In this document: positions 20,931-48,622 of the stretch, piece by piece
Layout: the number at the start of each line of letters is the position of its first letter
How positions within the stretch are numbered: position 1 is the first letter of the stretch
NCBI GenBank assembly: GCA_964106645.2
Contig: OZ067039.1
Strand: one strand, 5' to 3'
Origin: Podarcis pityusensis
Lineage: Eukaryota
Length of the DNA: 64,000 bases
The notes under the pieces: model-generated
Told to the model about the DNA's origin: nothing
What the model saw: only the letters and a program-made list of their open reading frames with translations
Database searches by the model: none
Program-made: the position numbers and the translations under genes

Positions 20931-21053
20931 TAACTACTTGTTTTATGTGTGTTGGATCAAAGCATGACACTTTCACCTTAGAGCTGCAAATTTAAGCAGA
21001 TGCGGTATGTGATTTGGTAAAATGGTATAATCCTCTTGTTAAATGATACACGT

Positions 21054-21837
21054 TGTCAGGGCTGCCTCAAGTCTCAGTTCACAAAAGACCAACGCCAATC
21101 TCTTCTTATATACGAAAGTGTTTATTGCAGTTCATTGTTTGCTTCACATCCGAGGCGCGCAGCCCCACGTCTGTTACGCTTAGACCGTTGAAGTCCCCTC
21201 TGAGTCAGTCCCTCCCCTGCACCAGTTTAAGAAGCTTGCTCTGCTCCACCTCTTCCTCTCTTTCCTTTTCCGCAGGGTCTTCCTGCCCCCTGGGGTTTCG
21301 CCCCTCCTGGATTCCCCTGACGCGGAATCCCCAGACTGCTCTTCCCCCCTCCTGCGGGCTTTGGGACCTGGCTCTTCCTCCGGGCTCCCTGTACTTCCGC
21401 GCGCCTCTACATTTGAATTTGGCGTGCGCGCCCAACCTCTAACCTTCCTTTTGACAGTTACACTACTCCCTTCACTACTCCCCTCCCCTTCCGGGAGGGT
21501 GGCTTGCTCCGACCTCCCTCCCTTCTCTGCTGCCGGAGCTGCTTCCCCTGATACACTGGATCCTCCACCCCCTTCGCTGCACTCTGGCGGGGAGGCTGGT
21601 TCTGACGCCCAGCTGCCACTTTGGGATCCCCTGCTGGCCCCCTGTTCCTGACACGTCCCCCCTGGGGCTCCCCTGGCCCTGACCACCGACGCCCCCTTCT
21701 GGGAATCCTCTGATTCGCTGGAAAGACTCATGGAATTTCTTGAGTCATTGTCATCCTCTTCCTCGCTGTCCTGGGATTCATCCCCATCGCTCTCCATCTC
21801 CTGCCTACCCTGTGCCTCTGTCCCTGAACCCCTGACA
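21054..21837 (-). repeat. 3' LTR
   Basis: TG...CA ends, immediately preceded on the minus strand by the polypurine tract, and contains AATAAA. Confidence 0.97.
21121..21126 (-). terminator. Polyadenylation signal AATAAA in the 3' LTR (copy at 26864-26869)
   Basis: Plus-strand TTTATT, located downstream of the predicted R start and of the pol stop codon. Confidence 0.75.
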
Positions 21838-24800
21838 TCCATCCCCCCCTCGAAGCCCCCCCTTCCCCCCTCCCGCTGCTCGGGCGCAGGTTCCGGGAGC
21901 TCCGTTGTAGCGGGGGTAGATGCTGAATACAGTCCGTCGACGTCGATCTCCTCTGCTTCCAGTTCAGTGTATGAGTGCTCGAAACCAGGGTCCTCCCCCA
22001 ACACATCCAAGTCCTCCCCTCCCCCAGTTACTTCAGGCGATGCTACTTGCCAAGGCTCCCGTCGCCACCCCACTTCTGGTTGATCGTCCCACCAATAAGA
22101 GCGGTCCGTGTCCACCCCCGAGCACGATCCCCTTGGAGGGCTCGATTCCGGCGTGGTCCCCTCTGCGGAGGAGAACCCCCGGAAGGTGCTGTCTGAAAGT
22201 GTGGGCGTAAAAAGCCAGTCGTCAAAATACTCCGCTGGCATGGGCCTGTGTGGGAAGAGTGCATGGAACTCGTCTTTGAGAAGAGGTTCCTCCAGAGCAT
22301 AATCTGGCACCCAACTGTTGGCGCTGGCCGGGGTACCTTCCCTGGTGAGGAGGTATTCTACCCCCTCCTCCCCCCATCTCGAGTCCAGAATTTCCGTGGC
22401 CTCGTTGAGTGTCGGGGCCCTCGGTGACTTCCCCCCCCCTGATGACTTTCTACGTGGGTCTGGTGCCGTCCCTGGCTCCTGAAATCTGTGTGGGGCCTTG
22501 TAGGGTGTAAGCACCGACCTATGAAAGACCGGGTGCATTCTGGAACCTTCTGGGAGTGTCAACCGAAAAGCTACGGGGTTGATCCTGCCCTCAACTTGGT
22601 ATGGCCCTAGCTGTTTGTGTCCTAGCTTCTTCTTAGCCAACGACTTGGCCGGCACCGCCTGAGCTGCTAACCATACCCAGTCCCCCACCTGGATCTCTTC
22701 TCCTGCCCTCCTGTGCCTGTCTGCCTGCACCTTGTAGGCGTGTTTAGCTAGCTCCAAGTGCCGTCGTAACTCCTCGTGGACCTCCTGCAATTCTGCTGCT
22801 AAATGCTCAGCTCCCTGCGACTCCCCCTGCGTCGGTGTCTCCAACCCCGGGAAGGTTCTGGGATGTCGCCCATTGTTGGCGAAGAATGGTGTCACCCCCG
22901 TAGACGCGTGCTTCGTGTTGTTGTAGGCAAACTCGGCCATTGGTAAGTAGTCCACCCAAGTTGCAGGCTGTTGATTGGCGTAACATCGCAGGTACTGCTG
23001 CATGATGGCGTTGACCCTCTCCACTTGGCCGTTGGTTTGCGGGTGTCTCGCCGACGCTAAGTTGATCTTGACATTCAGGATGCCCAGGAGCTTCTGCCAG
23101 AAACTGGAAATGAATTGGCGACCCCGGTCGGACAAGATGGACCGTGGTAAGCCGTGCACCCGGAACACGTGGTCTATGAACAGCTTGGCGGTCTGTTCCG
23201 CTGTTGCCACCTTCGCGCAAGGAATGAAGTGCGCCATCTTGGTGAAGAGGTCTGCAACCACAAGCACCGCCGTCTTGCCTCGCGAACTGGGCAGATCAGT
23301 AACAAAGTCCAGCGCCACCCTTTCCCACGGCTGTAGTGGCGTCTCCAGCGGTTCCAGCAATCCCGCTGGCTTCTTGTGCACTGGCTTGGACCTTTGACAA
23401 GTGTCACACCTGGCGACGTAATCCGCGACCTCTCCTCGCATCTGGGGCCACCAAAAGTCCCTGGCTACTAAGTCCGCCGTCTTTTCCTTGCCGAAGTGAC
23501 CCGCGCTGGGTGCGTCGTGTAACTGCTGTAGAACCTTCGCGCGGAGATCGTCTCCCGGCACGTAGAGAGCGCCTTTGCGGGTTAGCAGGCCGTCGCGTAT
23601 CTGGAATTCGTCGTCCTTTGCTGTCCCTCTGCGCACCTCCTCCATCTTGGATTGTGCGAACGGATCCGTCTGCAGTGCGCGTCGCACCGCGTCCAGGTCC
23701 ACGGCGGCGGAAGCGCACGCCCACGCCTGCGGTGCGAAAATGTGCTTGGCTGCCACTGGTGCCGCTTCCTCGAGATACTGCGGTTTCCTGGAGAGCGCAT
23801 CCTCTATGACGTTGTTGTCTCCCGGGATATACTCTATCCTGAAGTCGAAATCCACAAAGAACTCCGCCCATCGTATGTGCCTCTGGCTCTGGAGCTTCGC
23901 CGTGCGCCAATACTCTAGGTTCTTGTGGTCCGTGCGGACCTGCACGGTGTGCTTGGCTCCGATGAGGAAGTGCTGCCACGCCTTGAAAGCCGCGTGGATG
24001 GCCAACAACTCCCTGTCCCAGATGGTGTAGTTCTGTTCCGACTTGCTGAGCTTCCGGGAATAGAAAGCGCAGGGCCTCCAGTTCCCTTGCGGATCTTCCT
24101 GCAAGAGGACGGCCCCCACTGCTCTGTCAGATGCGTCAGTCTCAACCCGCATGGGCCTGCCGGGATTCACGTGTAGCAGCTGTTCTTCGGACGCGAAGAG
24201 GCTCTTAAGTCTCCTGAAGGACTGCTCCGCCTGGTCCGTCCAGGTGAACTTTTTCTTCTTGGAACTGAGGGTGTCCGTGATAGCTGCCGTCTCTTTCGCG
24301 AAACCCCTGATGAACTTGCGGTAAAAGTTGGCGAAGCCGACGAACCTCTGGACCTCCTTCCGATTGCGCGGGCTGTTCCAGTCCAACACTGCGCGGACCT
24401 TGGCACTGTCCATGGCTAGTCCCTTGTCGGACAGCCGGTAGCCCAGGAAATCCACTTCCGTCACGTCGAACTGGCACTTCTCCAGTTTGGCGTAGAGTCT
24501 GTGCTCCCGTAGCCTCTGCAGGACCTCCTTTACGTCTCTCTCGTGAGTCTCCTGCGATTCTGAGAAGATCAGAATGTCGTCGAGGAAGCATACGCACTTC
24601 TTGTAGAGGAGTCCCGCTAGCACGTGGTGCATGAATGCTTGGAAACAGTGGGAGCCATTTTGGAGACCAAACGGCATAACTCTGTATTCATAGGTGCCCA
24701 GCGGCGTGAACATGGCCGTCTTCCACTCGTCACCTTCCCTCATGCGTATTAGATTGTATGCTCCGCGTAGATCCAACTTGGTGAAGACCCTCCCCTTCCT

Positions 24801-25718
24801 CACTGTCGCGAGCAGGTCGTCAATTTTGGGCATGGGGAAAGCCTTGGGCTTTGTCATCGAGTTTATGGCCCTATAGTCCACAATGAGTCTTTTTGGGGGG
24901 GTGTCCTTCTTCTTCACGAAAAACACAGGACTGCCCCCCACTGCCTTGGATTCTCGGATGAATCCCCTCTTCAAATTGTGATCTATGAACTCCCTGAGTT
25001 CCTGCATCTCATCTTCAGACATGGAATACAGCTTCGCAGTCGGCAGCGTCGCCCCTGGTAAGAGGTCAATTGCACAGTCGTAGGGCCGGTGGGGTGGTAA
25101 TTGGTCAGCTTCCTTTTCACAGAAGACCTCCAAAAACCCCTTGTACTTGTGAGGCACTGCCTGCACCATGCCGAGATGCAACTGTTGCCCTTCCTCCTGG
25201 CCCTCCTCCTCCGGGCCGGACTGGATGCAATGTTGTGTGCAGTAGGACGAGCCAAAGGTGAGCTGCCGCTGGTACCACGCTAATGATGGGCTGTGTCTAT
25301 CCAGCCAACTCATGCCTAACACTATAGGCGTGTCTGACAGTCGGGTGACGTTGAAACTGATGACCTCGCGATGATTCCCAATTTGCATGAGCATGGGTGG
25401 CGTCTGGTGTACCACTTGCCCGCCCAGCAACTTCCTGCCATCTACCGTGACGACGTTCAGAGGCAGCGTGGCTGGTAGAAGCGCTATGCGATGCTGCTTG
25501 ATGAACTGCGCCCCCACGAAGTCTGCGTTGCTCCCTGAGTCAATTGTAATGGGGACTTCCAGGGTGAGTCCATTAGGTAGCTGGAGAGTAGCAGTGAGTT
25601 GCACCACTGGCTTGGGTGGTAGGGGATTTGTAGGCTGCAAAAGCACTGGGGACTGCTTCACTGACTTGCCTGGCTGAGCCCCAGCATCTCTGCTTCCAGC
25701 CAGGCATTGTCGTTTCCC
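21180..25718 (-). CDS. pol: Pol (PR-RT-RNase H-IN-chromodomain plus long tail), predicted about 1851-aa Gag-Pol made by -1 frameshift
   Basis: Uninterrupted ORF with PR IDSGS; RT LDLRGAY, MPFGL, FLDD; RNase H TDAS, RELLAI, TDHKNL, DALSR; IN HHCC, LDFV, SDRG, VERVN and GPY; chromodomain EILDSR...YLL...NSWVP. Its frame is -1 relative to gag. Stop TAA at 21180-21182 lies inside the 3' LTR. Confidence 0.96.
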   Translation of the reverse strand, partial: GKRQCLAGSRDAGAQPGKSVKQSPVLLQPTNPLPPKPVVQLTATLQLPNGLTLEVPITIDSGSNADFVGAQFIKQHRIALLPATLPLNVVTVDGRKLLGGQVVHQTPPMLMQIGNHREVISFNVTRLSDTPIVLGMSWLDRHSPSLAWYQRQLTFGSSYCTQHCIQSGPEEEGQEEGQQLHLGMVQAVPHKYKGFLEVFCEKEADQLPPHRPYDCAIDLLPGATLPTAKLYSMSEDEMQELREFIDHNLKRGFIRESKAVGGSPVFFVKKKDTPPKRLIVDYRAINSMTKPKAFPMPKIDDLLATVRKGRVFTKLDLRGAYNLIRMREGDEWKTAMFTPLGTYEYRVMPFGLQNGSHCFQAFMHHVLAGLLYKKCVCFLDDILIFSESQETHERDVKEVLQRLREHRLYAKLEKCQFDVTEVDFLGYRLSDKGLAMDSAKVRAVLDWNSPRNRKEVQRFVGFANFYRKFIRGFAKETAAITDTLSSKKKKFTWTDQAEQSFRRLKSLFASEEQLLHVNPGRPMRVETDASDRAVGAVLLQEDPQGNWRPCAFYSRKLSKSEQNYTIWDRELLAIHAAFKAWQHFLIGAKHTVQVRTDHKNLEYWRTAKLQSQRHIRWAEFFVDFDFRIEYIPGDNNVIEDALSRKPQYLEEAAPVAAKHIFAPQAWACASAAVDLDAVRRALQTDPFAQSKMEEVRRGTAKDDEFQIRDGLLTRKGALYVPGDDLRAKVLQQLHDAPSAGHFGKEKTADLVARDFWWPQMRGEVADYVARCDTCQRSKPVHKKPAGLLEPLETPLQPWERVALDFVTDLPSSRGKTAVLVVADLFTKMAHFIPCAKVATAEQTAKLFIDHVFRVHGLPRSILSDRGRQFISSFWQKLLGILNVKINLASARHPQTNGQVERVNAIMQQYLRCYANQQPATWVDYLPMAEFAYNNTKHASTGVTPFFANNGRHPRTFPGLETPTQGESQGAEHLAAELQEVHEELRRHLELAKHAYKVQADRHRRAGEEIQVGDWVWLAAQAVPAKSLAKKKLGHKQLGPYQVEGRINPVAFRLTLPEGSRMHPVFHRSVLTPYKAPHRFQEPGTAPDPRRKSSGGGKSPRAPTLNEATEILDSRWGEEGVEYLLTREGTPASANSWVPDYALEEPLLKDEFHALFPHRPMPAEYFDDWLFTPTLSDSTFRGFSSAEGTTPESSPPRGSCSGVDTDRSYWWDDQPEVGWRREPWQVASPEVTGGGEDLDVLGEDPGFEHSYTELEAEEIDVDGLYSASTPATTELPEPAPEQREGGRGGFEGGMDVRGSGTEAQGRQEMESDGDESQDSEEEDDNDSRNSMSLSSESEDSQKGASVVRARGAPGGTCQEQGASRGSQSGSWASEPASPPECSEGGGGSSVSGEAAPAAEKGGRSEQATLPEGEGSSEGSSVTVKRKVRGWARTPNSNVEARGSTGSPEEEPGPKARRRGEEQSGDSASGESRRGETPGGRKTLRKRKERKRWSRASFLNWCRGGTDSEGTSTV
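21838..21851 (-). other. Polypurine tract GAGGGGGGGATGGA
   Basis: Purine-rich run abutting the TG of the 3' LTR. Confidence 0.88.
25646..25718 (-). promoter_or_regulatory. -1 ribosomal frameshift signal: G GGA AAC plus predicted H-type pseudoknot
   Basis: Slippery heptamer at 25712-25718 in the gag frame, then a 5-nt spacer. Stem 1 TGCCTGGCTG/CAGCCAGGCA (25697-25706 with 25667-25676). Loop CTGGGG (25679-25684) can pair with downstream CCCCAG (25646-25651). Confidence 0.88.
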
Positions 25719-26734
25719 TGAAACTGCTCTCCTTGGAGCGCTGCCCCTGTTACTGTCGCTAAAGCTGCAGTGTGCTTCTGGAGCCTCTGGGGACACTCTT
25801 TGGCCATGTGCCGTGCACTGTCACAGATGTAACACTTCCTGGTCCCTCTAGGAGGCTTCGCCTTGACTGCTCCGGACGCTGAGGCTCCGGCAGCTGTCTG
25901 AGCCTTTGCACCACCAAGTTCCATTGGTTCCTCCCCCTCCCTCAGCAGAGGCGAGGGATGCGTACGCCCCAGGTCCCTGGGAAGAAAAGGAGGCGCTCTA
26001 GCTGGTGCGCGGACTTGGCGCCCCTCCTCACTGTGCCAAGGGCGTTCTTCGTGGCGCACTCCTATCGTGAGTGCCCTCTGCACGACGTCTGCTCGGGTTT
26101 GAGGTCTGTCCCCCCTGGCCAACTCATCTTTTACGGAGCCATGAAGCCCCTCCCAGAACAAGTCTCTCACTGCCAATGAGTCCTTTTCCCAGCCCAGCAC
26201 ATTCAGCAAAGCAAAAAAGCGAGAATGGTACTGACGCACTGTAGCCTTGCCCTGCCGCAATCCATGCATCTCCCGGCGCGCCACATCAACATCAACTGTA
26301 GATTGGAAGCAAGCGTCCATGGCTTTGATAAATTCATCAGAGTTCCTGCGGGCAGGACCATCTTCGCGCCACAAATTGCGTAACCAGACTCTAGCTTCCC
26401 CATGCAAGTGGGACACAATAAAGCCTACCTTCTCCTCCTCATCTTTGAAGTCTTTCTGAAGCAAATGCAGCGCGTATACGACGTCTGCTCTGAAACTGGG
26501 ATAATGCTTCAGGTTTCCATCGAAGTGGGCTACTAAATTGCCCCCCCTCCGTCCGAGTCCGATTCCCTCTGATCTGGACCCCGGGAACCCCTCTTTGCAC
26601 GCATGATCCCACCTGGCTTGCAGATCCTGGCATCGCGCTTCTGCTTCGGCAACTGTCTTCTGAGAGACCACTACTGCAGCGGAGAGTTCAGCAACTGCGT
26701 TTTGCAGGGTCGTTATCTGCTCCTCAGTAGTCAT
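25658..26734 (-). CDS. gag: Gag, 358 aa (coiled coil, capsid, CCHC nucleocapsid)
   Basis: First ATG after the PBS (MTTEEQ). N-terminal coiled-coil-like segment, capsid motifs HFDGN and LRQGKATVRQYHSRF, EEPMELGG, and zinc knuckle CYICDSARHMAKEC. Confidence 0.95.
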   Translation of the reverse strand: MTTEEQITTLQNAVAELSAAVVVSQKTVAEAEARCQDLQARWDHACKEGFPGSRSEGIGLGRRGGNLVAHFDGNLKHYPSFRADVVYALHLLQKDFKDEEEKVGFIVSHLHGEARVWLRNLWREDGPARRNSDEFIKAMDACFQSTVDVDVARREMHGLRQGKATVRQYHSRFFALLNVLGWEKDSLAVRDLFWEGLHGSVKDELARGDRPQTRADVVQRALTIGVRHEERPWHSEEGRQVRAPARAPPFLPRDLGRTHPSPLLREGEEPMELGGAKAQTAAGASASGAVKAKPPRGTRKCYICDSARHMAKECPQRLQKHTAALATVTGAALQGEQFQGNDNAWLEAEMLGLSQASQ

Positions 26735-26783
26735 GTCTGCCAAACTTCGTGAGCTTTGCAAAAAAAAAATTTGCGGTTTCTTG

Positions 26784-26794
26784 AGAGGGGACTT
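26784..26794 (-). other. Self-priming primer-binding site AAGTCCCCTCT
   Basis: Starts 2 nt after the 5' LTR, has no TGG start, and is the exact complement of AGAGGGGACTT at 26934-26944 in the LTR. Confidence 0.85.
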
Positions 26795-26796
26795 AC

Positions 26797-27580
26797 TGTC
26801 AGGGCTGCCTCAAGTCTCAGCTCACAAAAGACCAACGCCAATCTCTTCTTATATACGAAAGTGTTTATTGCAGTTCATTGTTTGCTTCACATCCGAGGCG
26901 CGCAGCCCCACGTCTGTTACGCTTAGACCGTTGAAGTCCCCTCTGAGTCAGTCCCTCCCCTGCACCAGTTTAAGAAGCTTGCTCTGCTCCACCTCTTCCT
27001 CTCTTTCCTTTTCCGCAGGGTCTTCCTGCCCCCTGGGGTTTCGCCCCTCCTGGATTCCCCTGACGCGGAATCCCCAGACTGCTCTTCCCCCCTCCTGCGG
27101 GCTTTGGGACCTGGCTCTTCCTCCGGGCTCCCTGTACTTCCGCGCGCCTCTACATTTGAACTTGGCACGCGCGCCCAACCTCTAACCTTCCTTTTGACAG
27201 TTACACTACTCCCTTCACTACTCCCCTCCCCTTCCGGGAGGGTGGCTTGCTCCGACCTCCCTCCCTTCTCTGCTGCCGGAGCTGCTTCCCCTGATACACT
27301 GGATCCTCCACCCCCTTCGCTGCACTCTGGCGGGGAGGCTGGTTCTGACGCCCAGCTGCCACTTTGGGATCCCCTGCTGGCCCCCTGTTCCTGACACGTC
27401 CCCCCTGGGGCTCCCCTGGCCCTGACCACCGGCGCCCCCTTCTGGGAATCCTCTGATTCGCTGGAAAGACTCATGGAATTTCTTGAGTCATTGTCATCCT
27501 CTTCCTCGCTGTCCTGGGATTCATCCCCATCGCTCTCCATCTCCTGCCTACCCTGTGCCTCTGTCCCTGAACCCCTGACA
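26797..27580 (-). repeat. 5' LTR (U3 about 26945-27580; R/U5 26797-26944)
   Basis: Matches 21054-21837 at offset 5743 with 5 substitutions seen by eye. Lies upstream of gag on the minus strand. Confidence 0.97.
26940..26976 (-). promoter_or_regulatory. LTR core promoter: TATA-like CTTAAA and Inr-like CTCAGA, predicted TSS 26944
   Basis: TTAAA starts at 26973, 29 nt upstream of the A in TCA. That A is also the first base of the PBS-complementary 11-mer. Confidence 0.7.
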
Positions 27581-27995
27581 CACGTTTTGACAAATTAAAG
27601 AGTTTAAGTGTTCACAAGGATTAATAAAATACACTGGTCTGATGGCACAAGATTAGACTGTGATGAACCCACCCTCTAGATCACCTGATCATATAAACAA
27701 ACCACTGCTAGTGGCTGGTGCTGGATCAAGTGTGTGTGTGTGTGCATGCTGTCAGTCTTCTTCTTCAAAAATAAGAAGATAAAGATGTGAGAGTTAATAA
27801 TGGTTGAGTTTTACTTTTGTTGAAAAGACAATATATAGATAATACAGCTATAGGTGTTGCACAGGAAGCACTGAGAGTCATTTGCTCACACATAAACCAA
27901 TGAGACTAGCTGCACTGGGCTGCTGGCATGTCACTGTGTCTGCAATGCCCGATTTCTCACTCAAGGAGGGAGAAATCAGAGAAAACATGGCAATA

Positions 27996-33457: not shown

Positions 33458-34842
33458 TTTTTTTTTTTTTTTTTAAAGATATTTATTAGAGTTTAGGTAT
33501 TACAAACAAAAAAGGGGAAAAAAGGAATACAAGCAATAAACAATTACAAAACCTCAAAAACAAAAGAAAATACAATAATCAACAATACATCAAAACATTA
33601 AAAAAGAAAAAAAAGAATCATTTAAAAAACACAAACCTTTAAGAAAATAGAAGGGGAAAAAAGAAGAAGAAAAAAGAACAAAAAAGAAGGACCCCATATT
33701 TTCATATCCTTATCTTTCATTTGCTTATTTCCTCGACTTCCTCACACCTCCTTTTTTGTATTCTAGTTCAATTAATTGTTCCAGCAAATCCTTTCCCTCT
33801 TTTTCAAATTTAGTCCATAATTTATCTTAACACAATTTAACCTTAAGTTTAACCTTTACCCATTGTCAGTCTATTCATATTTAATTCTTTATAACATTTC
33901 TACTAGAGTCATATAACTTCTTTCCAGCATCCTTCTAACATTCATTAATTTTACAATATTTCTGTAAATATACTTTAAATTTTTTCCAATCTTCTTCCAC
34001 CGACTCTTCTCCCTGGTCTCGGATTCTGCCAGTCATTTCCACCAGTTCCATGTAATCCATCAGCTTCATCTGCCATTCTTCCTTGGTAGGTAGATCTTGT
34101 GTCTTCCAGTGCTTTGCGATAAGTATTCTTGCTGCTGTTGTGGCGTACATGAAAAAAATTCTGTCCTTCTTTGGCACCAATTGGCCTACCATGCCCAGGA
34201 GAAAGGCCTCTGGTTTCTTTAGAAAGGTATATTTAAATACCTTTTTCATTTCATTATAGATCATCTCCCAGAATGCCTTAATCTTTGGGCATGTCCACCA
34301 AAGGTGAAAGAATGTACCTTCAGTTTCATTACATTTCCAACATTTATTATCGGGCAAATGGTAATTTTTTGCAAGCTTGACTGGTGTTATGTACCACCTG
34401 TAAATCATTTTCATTAAATTCTCTTTTAAGGCATTACATGCCGTAAACTTCATACCAGTGGTCCATAACTGTTCCCAGTCAGCCATCATAATATTATGTC
34501 CAACATCTTGTGCCCATTTAATCATAGCAGATTTCACCATTTCATCTTGAGTATTCCATTTCAACAGCAAGTTATACATTCTTGACAGATTCTTAACTTT
34601 AGGGTCTAACAATTCTGTTTCCAGCTTTGATTTTTCCACCTGGAAGCCTAGTTTTTTGTCCGAGTTATATGCCTCCATTATTTGGTAGTAATGGAGCCAA
34701 TCTCGTACTCTGTTTTTTAATTTTTCAAAGCTCTGCAGTTTTAATCTGTCACCCTCTTGTTCCAAAATTTCCCAATACTTCGGCCATTTGGCCTCCATAT
34801 TGAGTTTTTTCTGAGCCTTTGCTTCCATTGGTGACAGCCATC
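33458..34842 (-). mobile_element. Young 5'-truncated L1-clade LINE (ORF2 C-terminus, 3' UTR, polyA)
   Basis: Open frame 33935-34842 with CWKC-x8-H-x4-C (CWKCNETEGTFFHLWWTC). AATAAA at 33482-33487 and poly(T) at 33458-33474 on the plus strand. TSD TGTTGCGTGTCTTTT at 33447 and 34843. Confidence 0.93.
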
Positions 34843-35259
34843 TGTTGCGTGTCTTTTCTTCTATGTAATATAAATTTTCAAAACTATGTTTAGTTGTGCC
34901 TGTGATATGAACTATGAACATGCTTGTCTGACTCCTGAACAGATCCATGCAGCCATAGGCATGTAGGCTCCACCACATGACTAAGAACCCCCAATCACAT
35001 AAGACAGCTTGTGTGTTTAGAGTTGTATGTGCATAGTCTCCCAGTTCAGACCTTTGCTGAAGATGCTGAGGTAAGGGATACAGATCTGGTGTCAAAGGCT
35101 CTTCAGCACAGGGTTCTGAACACATTTTCTACCAAGAAGGCATATGAATATCTCCACTGCATGATATAGTCGGTACAGTGGGATGCAGCATAGATATTAG
35201 TAACAGAATTCTACTTTGATGCATTTAGAATTGCTTTTAATTCATTGGCCCCCACTGGG

Positions 35260-47973: not shown

Positions 47974-48622
47974 TCCCATCACCTCCTGGCAAATAGAAGG
48001 GGAAGAAATGGAGGCAGTGAGAGATTTTACTTTCTTGGGCTCCATGATCACTGCAGATGGTGACAGCAGTCACGAAATTAAAAGACGCCTGCTCCTTTGA
48101 GAAAGGCAATGGCAAACCTAGATAGCATCTTAAAAAGCAGAGACATCACCTTGCCAACAAAGGTCCGTATAGTTAAAGCCATGGTTTTCCCAGTAGTGAT
48201 GAATGGAAGTGAGAGCTGGACCATAAAGAAGGCTGATCGCCGAAGAATTGATGCTTTTGAATTATGGTGCTGGAGGAGACTCTTGAGAGTCCCATGGACT
48301 GCAAGAAGATCAAACGCATCCATTCTTAAGGAAATTAGCCCTGAGTGGTCACTGGAAGGACAGATCATGAAGCTGAGGCTCCAATACTTTGGCCACCTCA
48401 TGAGAAGAGAAGACTCCCTGGAAAAGACCCTGATGTTGGGAAAGATTGAGGGCACAAGGAGAAGGGGACGACAGGGGATGAGATGGTTGGACAGTGTTCT
48501 CGAAGCTACAAACATGAGTCTGACCAAACTGCGGGAGGCAGTGGAAGACAGGAGTGCCTGGCGTGCTCTGGTCCATGGGGTCACAAAGAGTCGGACACGA
48601 CTAAACGACTAAACAACAACAA
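47974..48622 (+). mobile_element. Bov-B (RTE) LINE 3' fragment
   Basis: ORF NLDSILKSRDITLPTKVRIVKAMVFPVV...WRALVHGVTKSRTRLND and 3' end GAGTCGGACACGACTAAACGACTAAACAACAACAA. One frameshift near 48097. Confidence 0.95.

Follow-up and report, generated by a model that had tools for sequence, protein, structure and literature searches.

A candidate LEDGF/HRP2-binding motif in the LTR-overlapping integrase tail of a lizard chromovirus

In HIV and mouse mammary tumour virus (MMTV), the U3 part of the long terminal repeat (LTR) is both promoter and coding sequence, for nef and sag respectively, and these are separate genes on spliced RNAs. Plant CRM group A elements and the beet element Bingo are described as carrying the polyprotein frame itself into the 3' LTR, and the CRM LTR is reported to encode a targeting domain in which a CR motif replaces the chromodomain and targets centromeres. 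In lentiviral integrase (with LEDGF), the C-terminal tail of murine leukaemia virus integrase (with BET proteins) and Ty1 integrase (with AC40), an integrase element is described as binding a host chromatin factor and biasing integration. Here we describe an LTR retrotransposon in a 64,000-nucleotide stretch of the lizard Podarcis pityusensis (assembly GCA_964106645.2, contig OZ067039.1), called the window below. The element resembles the Tf1/sushi chromoviruses of the vertebrate V-clade, such as Sushi-ichi and Amn, in its gag-pol order, its integrase with SH3 domain and chromodomain, its self-priming, its TGTCA...TGACA ends and its lack of env. It differs from them at the end of pol: of 252 chromodomain proteins collected by three database searches, 110 end no more than 30 amino acids (aa) past the chromodomain, and most of these relatives keep the aromatic cage, whereas the present element has a 360-aa tail, has lost the cage and carries an FxGF motif. 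Unlike nef and sag, the frame is continuous with pol. Compared by description with CRM, the chromodomain fold is kept upstream of the polypurine tract (PPT), the candidate motif precedes the PPT, and copies lie at chromosome ends. The overlap of pol and LTR is by itself an already known arrangement; what is new is the candidate FxGF motif at the tail start in one clade. The 3' end of pol is organised as follows.

21180..25820, minus strand: pol frame of 1546 aa between stops
22263..22400, minus strand: degenerate chromodomain, 0 of 3 aromatic-cage residues, still conserved (ratio of nonsynonymous to synonymous substitution rates, dN/dS, 0.08)
21838..22262, minus strand: acidic tail upstream of the LTR, 142 codons
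22173..22232, minus strand: candidate TND-interacting (LEDGF/HRP2-binding) motif, made of a helix, an 8-residue Ser/Thr linker and FxGF
21838..21851, minus strand: PPT, translated as codons
21202..21837, minus strand: predicted U3, coding throughout, acidic then basic by charge profile
21348-21365 and 21438-21452, minus strand: further basic clusters
21240..21284, minus strand: C-terminal basic cluster, candidate nuclear-import signal or nucleosome anchor
21180..21182, minus strand: pol stop, 20-22 nt inside the predicted R

The start of the tail is its best-kept part, with 18 of 20 residues identical between subfamily A, to which the window element belongs, and subfamily B, a second young subfamily of the same genome with about 85% identity in integrase. 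This part lies upstream of the PPT, was overlooked by the first-pass annotation of the window, and by its sequence appears to have the layout of a LEDGF/HRP2-binding motif. TND-interacting motifs (TIMs) are described as consisting of a helix, a linker of 8-16 residues that is acidic or phosphorylated, and FxGF (PMC9987994; also PMC10854676), with FxGF reported in all known LEDGF and HRP2 partners (PMC9987994). The host motifs of KMT2A, JPO2, IWS1 and POGZ, as described, are alike in helix, 8-9-residue acidic or Ser/Thr linker, FxGF and disordered surroundings; they differ in that the candidate here sits on a retrotransposon integrase and that the linker of the window family is barely acidic. 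FxGF is present in 45 of 45 subfamily-A and 30 of 30 subfamily-B copies. Families only about 50% identical in integrase show the same order after the chromodomain: an aromatic, helix-like segment ending in Phe, an 8-9-residue linker, and FxGF. The anchor Phe is invariant in all eight aligned rows, and the upstream helix is seen in a single model, of low confidence. Families C and D have a strongly acidic linker; that of A and B is rich in Ser and Thr. The full pattern was found in 17 of the 252 chromodomain proteins, 14 of them from Podarcis, and in 12 of 50,000 shuffled tails. In a quick tree, 21 FxGF rows fall within one branch of 22 (Shimodaira-Hasegawa-like approximate likelihood-ratio support, SH-aLRT, 98), and the lone exception, P0136, was mislabelled through a fragmentary alignment and bears FxGF as well. 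The host genome encodes the PSIP1 IBD. Family D (loci L056, L061-L065, L067 and L070) and the protein P0144 carry two helix-linker-FxGF motifs in tandem; several host TIM proteins are also said to carry tandem motifs (PMC9987994).

A search of openly available papers yielded no report of an FxGF or TIM motif in a retrotransposon, though proteome-wide motif lists beyond it may mention one. The same literature held no report of LTR read-through in squamate chromoviruses (Repbase and Dfam family entries lay outside that search) and none of a targeting mechanism for vertebrate Gypsy elements. A TND review names lentiviral integrases as the sole hijackers (PMC9987994), and HIV integrase is described as engaging the same domain of LEDGF through a folded site arranged in advance (PMC10854676); the present element would use a host-type linear motif. 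If this is true, the transposon-borne FxGF would represent a second, independent capture of LEDGF/HRP2.

The frame behind the motif is long. As the first-pass annotation had claimed, pol stays open past the chromodomain for 360 codons, 218 of them inside the 3' LTR, and stops in the predicted R. The words EYFDDWLF, YWWDD, KRKVR and PKARRR and the other motifs it named are all in place, as are the in-frame ATGs at 21842 and 21797 (220 and 205 aa). The same frame is indeed open in the 5' LTR, which follows from LTR copying and so adds no independent evidence. Its statement that the PPT normally lies beyond the end of Gypsy pol is too strong, as read-through is published for CRM group A and Bingo and is common to a whole squamate clade. 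The chromodomain match ends at 22263 and is weak (19.6 bits against a Pfam Chromo cut-off of 25.1), and this below-cut-off domain aligns with relatives that score in full. The tail has no match in Pfam or the ESM Atlas, and an AlphaFold model of SH3, chromodomain and tail reaches a mean predicted local distance difference test score of 37.5, low even across the SH3 domain and therefore uninformative.

Such a frame could be a by-product of a T-poor, purine-rich LTR under promoter and PPT constraints, the tail being tolerated junk. T makes up 14% of the tail, and the LTR part alone is open in 390 of 20,000 dinucleotide shuffles; because this is 2% of shuffles, frame length is suggestive but not decisive for U3. 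Of 20,000 mononucleotide shuffles 1, and of 20,000 dinucleotide shuffles 5, left the whole tail open in any of three frames, a composition check that the annotation had proposed and that came out in favour of its claim. Families C, D and F likewise read into the LTR, and the frame persists among families about 50% identical in integrase, again at odds with a by-product.

The comparison of subfamilies A and B largely refutes the by-product idea, which we regard as very improbable. In a DNA-only alignment, the dN/dS of U3 is 0.35 when read in the pol frame, while the two remaining sense frames give 1.33 and 0.87; a value below 1 is what the annotation's proposed test had anticipated. U3 mismatches by codon position are 51, 49 and 87 (third-position excess, p=1.2e-4), and the pre-LTR tail gives 0.32. 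A protein-guided alignment of the window element with B gives 0.07 for the integrase core, 0.08 for the chromodomain, 0.30-0.32 for the pre-LTR tail and 0.30 for U3 at a dS of 1.2. The frame-specific ratio near 0.35 at dS above 1 is difficult to reconcile with tolerated junk. Three pairs within family D give U3 values of 0.33, 0.56 and 0.36. The further expectation that indels come in multiples of three held in part: the pre-LTR tail differs by 9, 3 and 54 nt, and the U3 total of -27 includes single non-triplet gaps. Two results pull towards the by-product side. Comparisons within subfamily A are weak (U3 0.36 and 0.64, not significant), and the non-coding R-U5 control, a short one of 114 nt with 8 gaps, is also skewed at the third position (8/5/15, p=0.022). 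Taken as a whole, the tail is very probably functional at the protein level, and this is a real, selected feature: a promoter-bearing U3 under simultaneous protein selection, which makes the LTR a clear vertebrate case of that arrangement.

One place where both demands may meet is an AT-rich, TATA-like patch at 21215-21235 (minus strand), about 30 nt before the predicted RNA start, which encodes the hydrophobic residues before a Trp common to families A, B, D and E. The patch is thus a candidate for serving as core promoter and coding sequence at once; the conserved hydrophobic-x-W near the tail end, overlying it, can also be counted for the by-product explanation.

Read-through is shared beyond the window family. 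Among 20 loci of other families, nine have an LTR pair and a frame extending at least 100 codons into the LTR, four end earlier and seven have no usable pair. In family F the frame runs 355 nt into the LTR in both copies examined, whose LTRs are identical. The quick tree, of 39 rows, gathers the squamate families with long tails, also those of Anolis, on a single branch (SH-aLRT 97). Many longer-tailed database proteins resemble chimeric gene models. Read-through into the 3' LTR is reported for CRM group A (PMC3059260) and for the beet elements Beetle and Bingo (PMC3605345). In the relatives P0283, P0311, P0326, P0335, P0360 and P0363, the tail is 38-49 aa long and contains PRGRGRP-like words and a junction rich in Gly, which suggests short PPT read-through in other lineages as judged from protein.

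The chromodomain in front of the tail has lost its presumed ligand pocket. Group I chromodomains, the methyl-lysine readers, are described as having three aromatic cage residues (PMC3059260, PMC3605345); the window element has none of the three. Among the 225 of 262 proteins that could be parsed for this scoring, a complete cage is seen in 191 of the 204 motif-less chromodomains and in none of the 21 that bear the motif.

The families also differ in where their copies lie. Counts were made from top-scoring matches on chromosome-scale contigs, with unplaced contigs and C19 left out and neighbours within 20 kb collapsed. Within 1 Mb of a chromosome end lie 27 of 70 subfamily-A, 25 of 78 subfamily-B and 14 of 96 family-D copies, so that the motif-bearing families place 15-39% of their copies there; the motif-less control, family F, places 5 of 135 (3.7%), with 2.6% expected. 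Age is no explanation for this gap, because subfamily B is very young and so is family F. Subtelomeric duplication inflates the end excess somewhat, as L071/L089 and L080-L082 have common flanks. Family E did not serve as a control because its matches are old and mostly C19 fragments. What these counts show, against one control family, is a family-specific landscape with respect to chromosome ends rather than a gene-body bias of the LEDGF type. Motif-bearing and motif-less young families with a roughly tenfold different end bias in one genome constitute a natural experiment on tethers and insertion landscapes. Flank GC, CpG and tandem content do not separate A and B from F. The telomere-protein motif [FY]xLxP is absent from the tail. 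The subfamily-A copies L004, L008, L013 and L116 adjoin telomere-type repeat arrays. C19 gathers older families (53 of 150 family-D matches), as might be expected of a non-recombining sex chromosome.

These observations can be joined into a mechanism. Gag-Pol would be made by a -1 frameshift, and the disordered tail would stay on integrase. The helix-linker-FxGF segment would dock on a TND of the LEDGF/HRP2 type and tether the integration complex to chromatin, taking over from the lost methyl-lysine cage; in the window family the Ser/Thr linker would have to be phosphorylated to act as an acidic one. The U3-encoded basic end may serve nuclear import or anchor the complex to the nucleosome acidic patch. 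The tree suggests an order in which LTR read-through came first; next, upstream of the PPT, the motif arose while the cage was decaying, and in family D it was duplicated. Whether the coding U3 gives integrase an acidic-then-basic tail that tethers through such a TND in place of the chromodomain pocket is, from the sequences, an evenly balanced question, and the LEDGF/HRP2 tether considered alone stands at about the same level. The evolutionary extension, that the clade copied a host TND-interacting motif into its integrase tail in convergence with lentiviruses and that the swap redirected insertions to chromosome ends, is tentative and falls somewhat short of an even chance.

Several points weigh against the LEDGF/HRP2 tether. 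LEDGF is reported to steer HIV into gene bodies (PMC5053271, PMC9987994). LEDGF tethering predicts active gene bodies, and the observed bias is towards chromosome ends; there, flank GC is not above the control (medians 0.44, 0.43 and 0.46) and telomere-like repeats occur in 3 of 41 subfamily-A flanks. The 8-residue linker of the window family holds a single acidic residue, an Asp, unlike those of C and D, and the motif pattern was composed after the sequences had been seen. A profile of eight motif segments, run against 177,635 PDB sequences, placed first a 21-aa KMT2A peptide, 2msr_A, which speaks for the tether, but at a non-significant E of 0.32 and with myosin at a nearly equal score; this entry we take to be the LEDGF-bound KMT2A peptide. 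As the motif lies upstream of the PPT, it leaves the coding U3 unexplained. Behind the gain of the motif, the loss of the cage and the end bias stand a single clade and a single control family, so these three are no independent replicates. Finally, 31 of 45 subfamily-A copies are out of frame owing to a G-run upstream of the chromodomain, a point taken up below.

The tail may instead be a real part of integrase with another partner: a different TND protein, a subtelomeric factor, or, with the basic end acting alone, an import signal and nucleosome anchor. The strong bias towards chromosome ends fits this, as does the report that TND selectivity hinges on pocket details (PMC9987994). All long-tailed families end in basic clusters. 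In the sister families (family F and Anolis), the LTR-encoded tail ends in RRSARL or RRSARI (P0175, P0154, P0156, P0167, P0172, P0312; L160:7151-7219), and the HMGN nucleosome acidic-patch motif is given as RRSARLSA (PMC12487698), so that the RRSARL-like end is possibly a second host mimic encoded within U3. Against this, the basic U3 tail of family F comes with no end bias; FxGF is tied specifically to LEDGF and HRP2 in the account of PMC9987994, all 75 A and B copies carry it unchanged, and family D carries it twice. We therefore regard another partner as rather unlikely.

A further explanation is that, in addition or for the most part, the tail is produced separately as a nef- or sag-like accessory protein, from a spliced RNA or from the ATGs at the LTR edge. 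The first-pass annotation had offered this beside a disordered targeting or import tail on integrase; its protein-coding U3 stands, under purifying selection, and the integrase tail is the most likely form, while the separate protein has weak footing. The proposed splicing would join a donor at the 5' LTR end (26797) to an acceptor at 22247-22246, ahead of an ATG at 22241. Among 11 joints listed for four contig sets, three of them presumably RNA, none links 26797 with the region of 22245; the contigs stem from related organisms, which makes them no measure of splicing or expression. A donor-like GTAAG directly follows the 5' LTR in A and B, and both have a pyrimidine tract and YAG before the in-frame ATG. 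But the donor coincides in part with the primer site and the acceptor with conserved codons, and family D has neither a GT donor nor the Met. Met 21797 is not kept in B, nor Met 21842 in C, D or E. In the 5' LTR, U3 precedes the predicted RNA start.

The integrity of the frame bears on the same question.

22431..22439, minus strand: G-run between SH3 and chromodomain, of variable length among subfamily-A copies

Among the 45 copies, this run leaves 14 in frame, shifts 15 one way and 16 the other. The frame from SH3 to the end is unbroken in just 5 of the 30 nearest subfamily-A copies, and the tail itself is whole in 17 of these 30; it is also whole in 12 of 21 A copies shifted upstream, as an independently expressed tail would allow. 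The state of the run is not inherited, however. A tree of 43 copies, from which two duplicates were removed, requires 11 changes of state; shuffling gives 12, and 144 of 500 shuffles need no more than 11. Even rows that are identical, and loci that are duplicates, disagree in state. The lack of clustering and the differing duplicates therefore point to slippage after insertion or assembly error, rather than to shifted master copies. One sequencing contig (run X18) shows a single-base loss at 22440, at a depth of 429 of 7,980, a weak hint that part of the variation is assembly noise. Subfamily B retains the fusion: an uninterrupted frame of at least 1520 aa runs through the tail in 61 of 93 scored copies, as counted by hand, with two excluded for an internal stop and with a search that favours open tails. 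A separate accessory protein is thus improbable, and we retain the tail as part of integrase.

The remaining features of the element complete its assignment.

27580..21054, minus strand: complete LTR retrotransposon, with LTR pair and 5-bp target duplication
26797..27580, minus strand: 5' LTR, 784 bp, TG...CA ends, 5 differences from the 3' LTR
21054..21837, minus strand: 3' LTR, 784 bp, paired with the 5' LTR
27581..27585, minus strand, second copy at 21049-21053: 5-bp target-site duplication
26784..26794, minus strand: self-priming primer site, 11-nt complementarity to 26944-26934
25658..26734, minus strand: gag (Ty3 capsid, CCHC knuckle)
25712..25718, minus strand: likely -1 frameshift heptamer linking gag to pol, as read from the sequence
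21121..21126, minus strand: AATAAA polyadenylation signal

The pol order is protease, reverse transcriptase, RNase H, integrase, SH3, chromodomain and tail, and the list of open reading frames in the window holds no env-sized frame. Heptamers for -1 frameshifting follow the slippery pattern X XXY YYZ. In the Tf1 mechanism, the site that pairs with the primer is taken as the RNA start. The pairing partner of the primer site lies in the LTR at 26944/21201, the predicted RNA 5' end; we infer from this the RNA start at 21201, and hence the U3/R border and the position of the stop in R. The pairing is retained with different letters in B (10 nt), D (11 nt) and F (10 nt), and the offset from stop to R is similar in subfamily B and family D. 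In subfamily B, one of two loci examined has an LTR pair, 99.87% identical. Self-priming is given as a hallmark of the Tf1/sushi group (PMC6317226), and the Sushi LTR-end pattern, as described, fits the LTR ends of this element (PMC3601003). Because of its self-priming and Sushi-like ends we assign the element to Tf1/sushi, whose Gypsy-order pol with SH3 and C-terminal chromodomain it also has; we class it as a self-priming chromovirus of Tf1/sushi type, of young age and with a lacertid lizard as host, its nearest named proteins being from Podarcis. Its integrase clusters with vertebrate and fungal chromoviruses in the quick, midpoint-rooted tree of 39 rows, from which named reference elements are absent.

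At two loci, L009 and L076, a second LTR start directly follows the 3' LTR (tandem or nested copies). Elsewhere in the window, the open frames 33935-35128 (minus strand) and 48082-48612 (plus strand) resemble fragments of long interspersed nuclear elements, presumably an L1-like C-terminus and an RTE/BovB-like frame.

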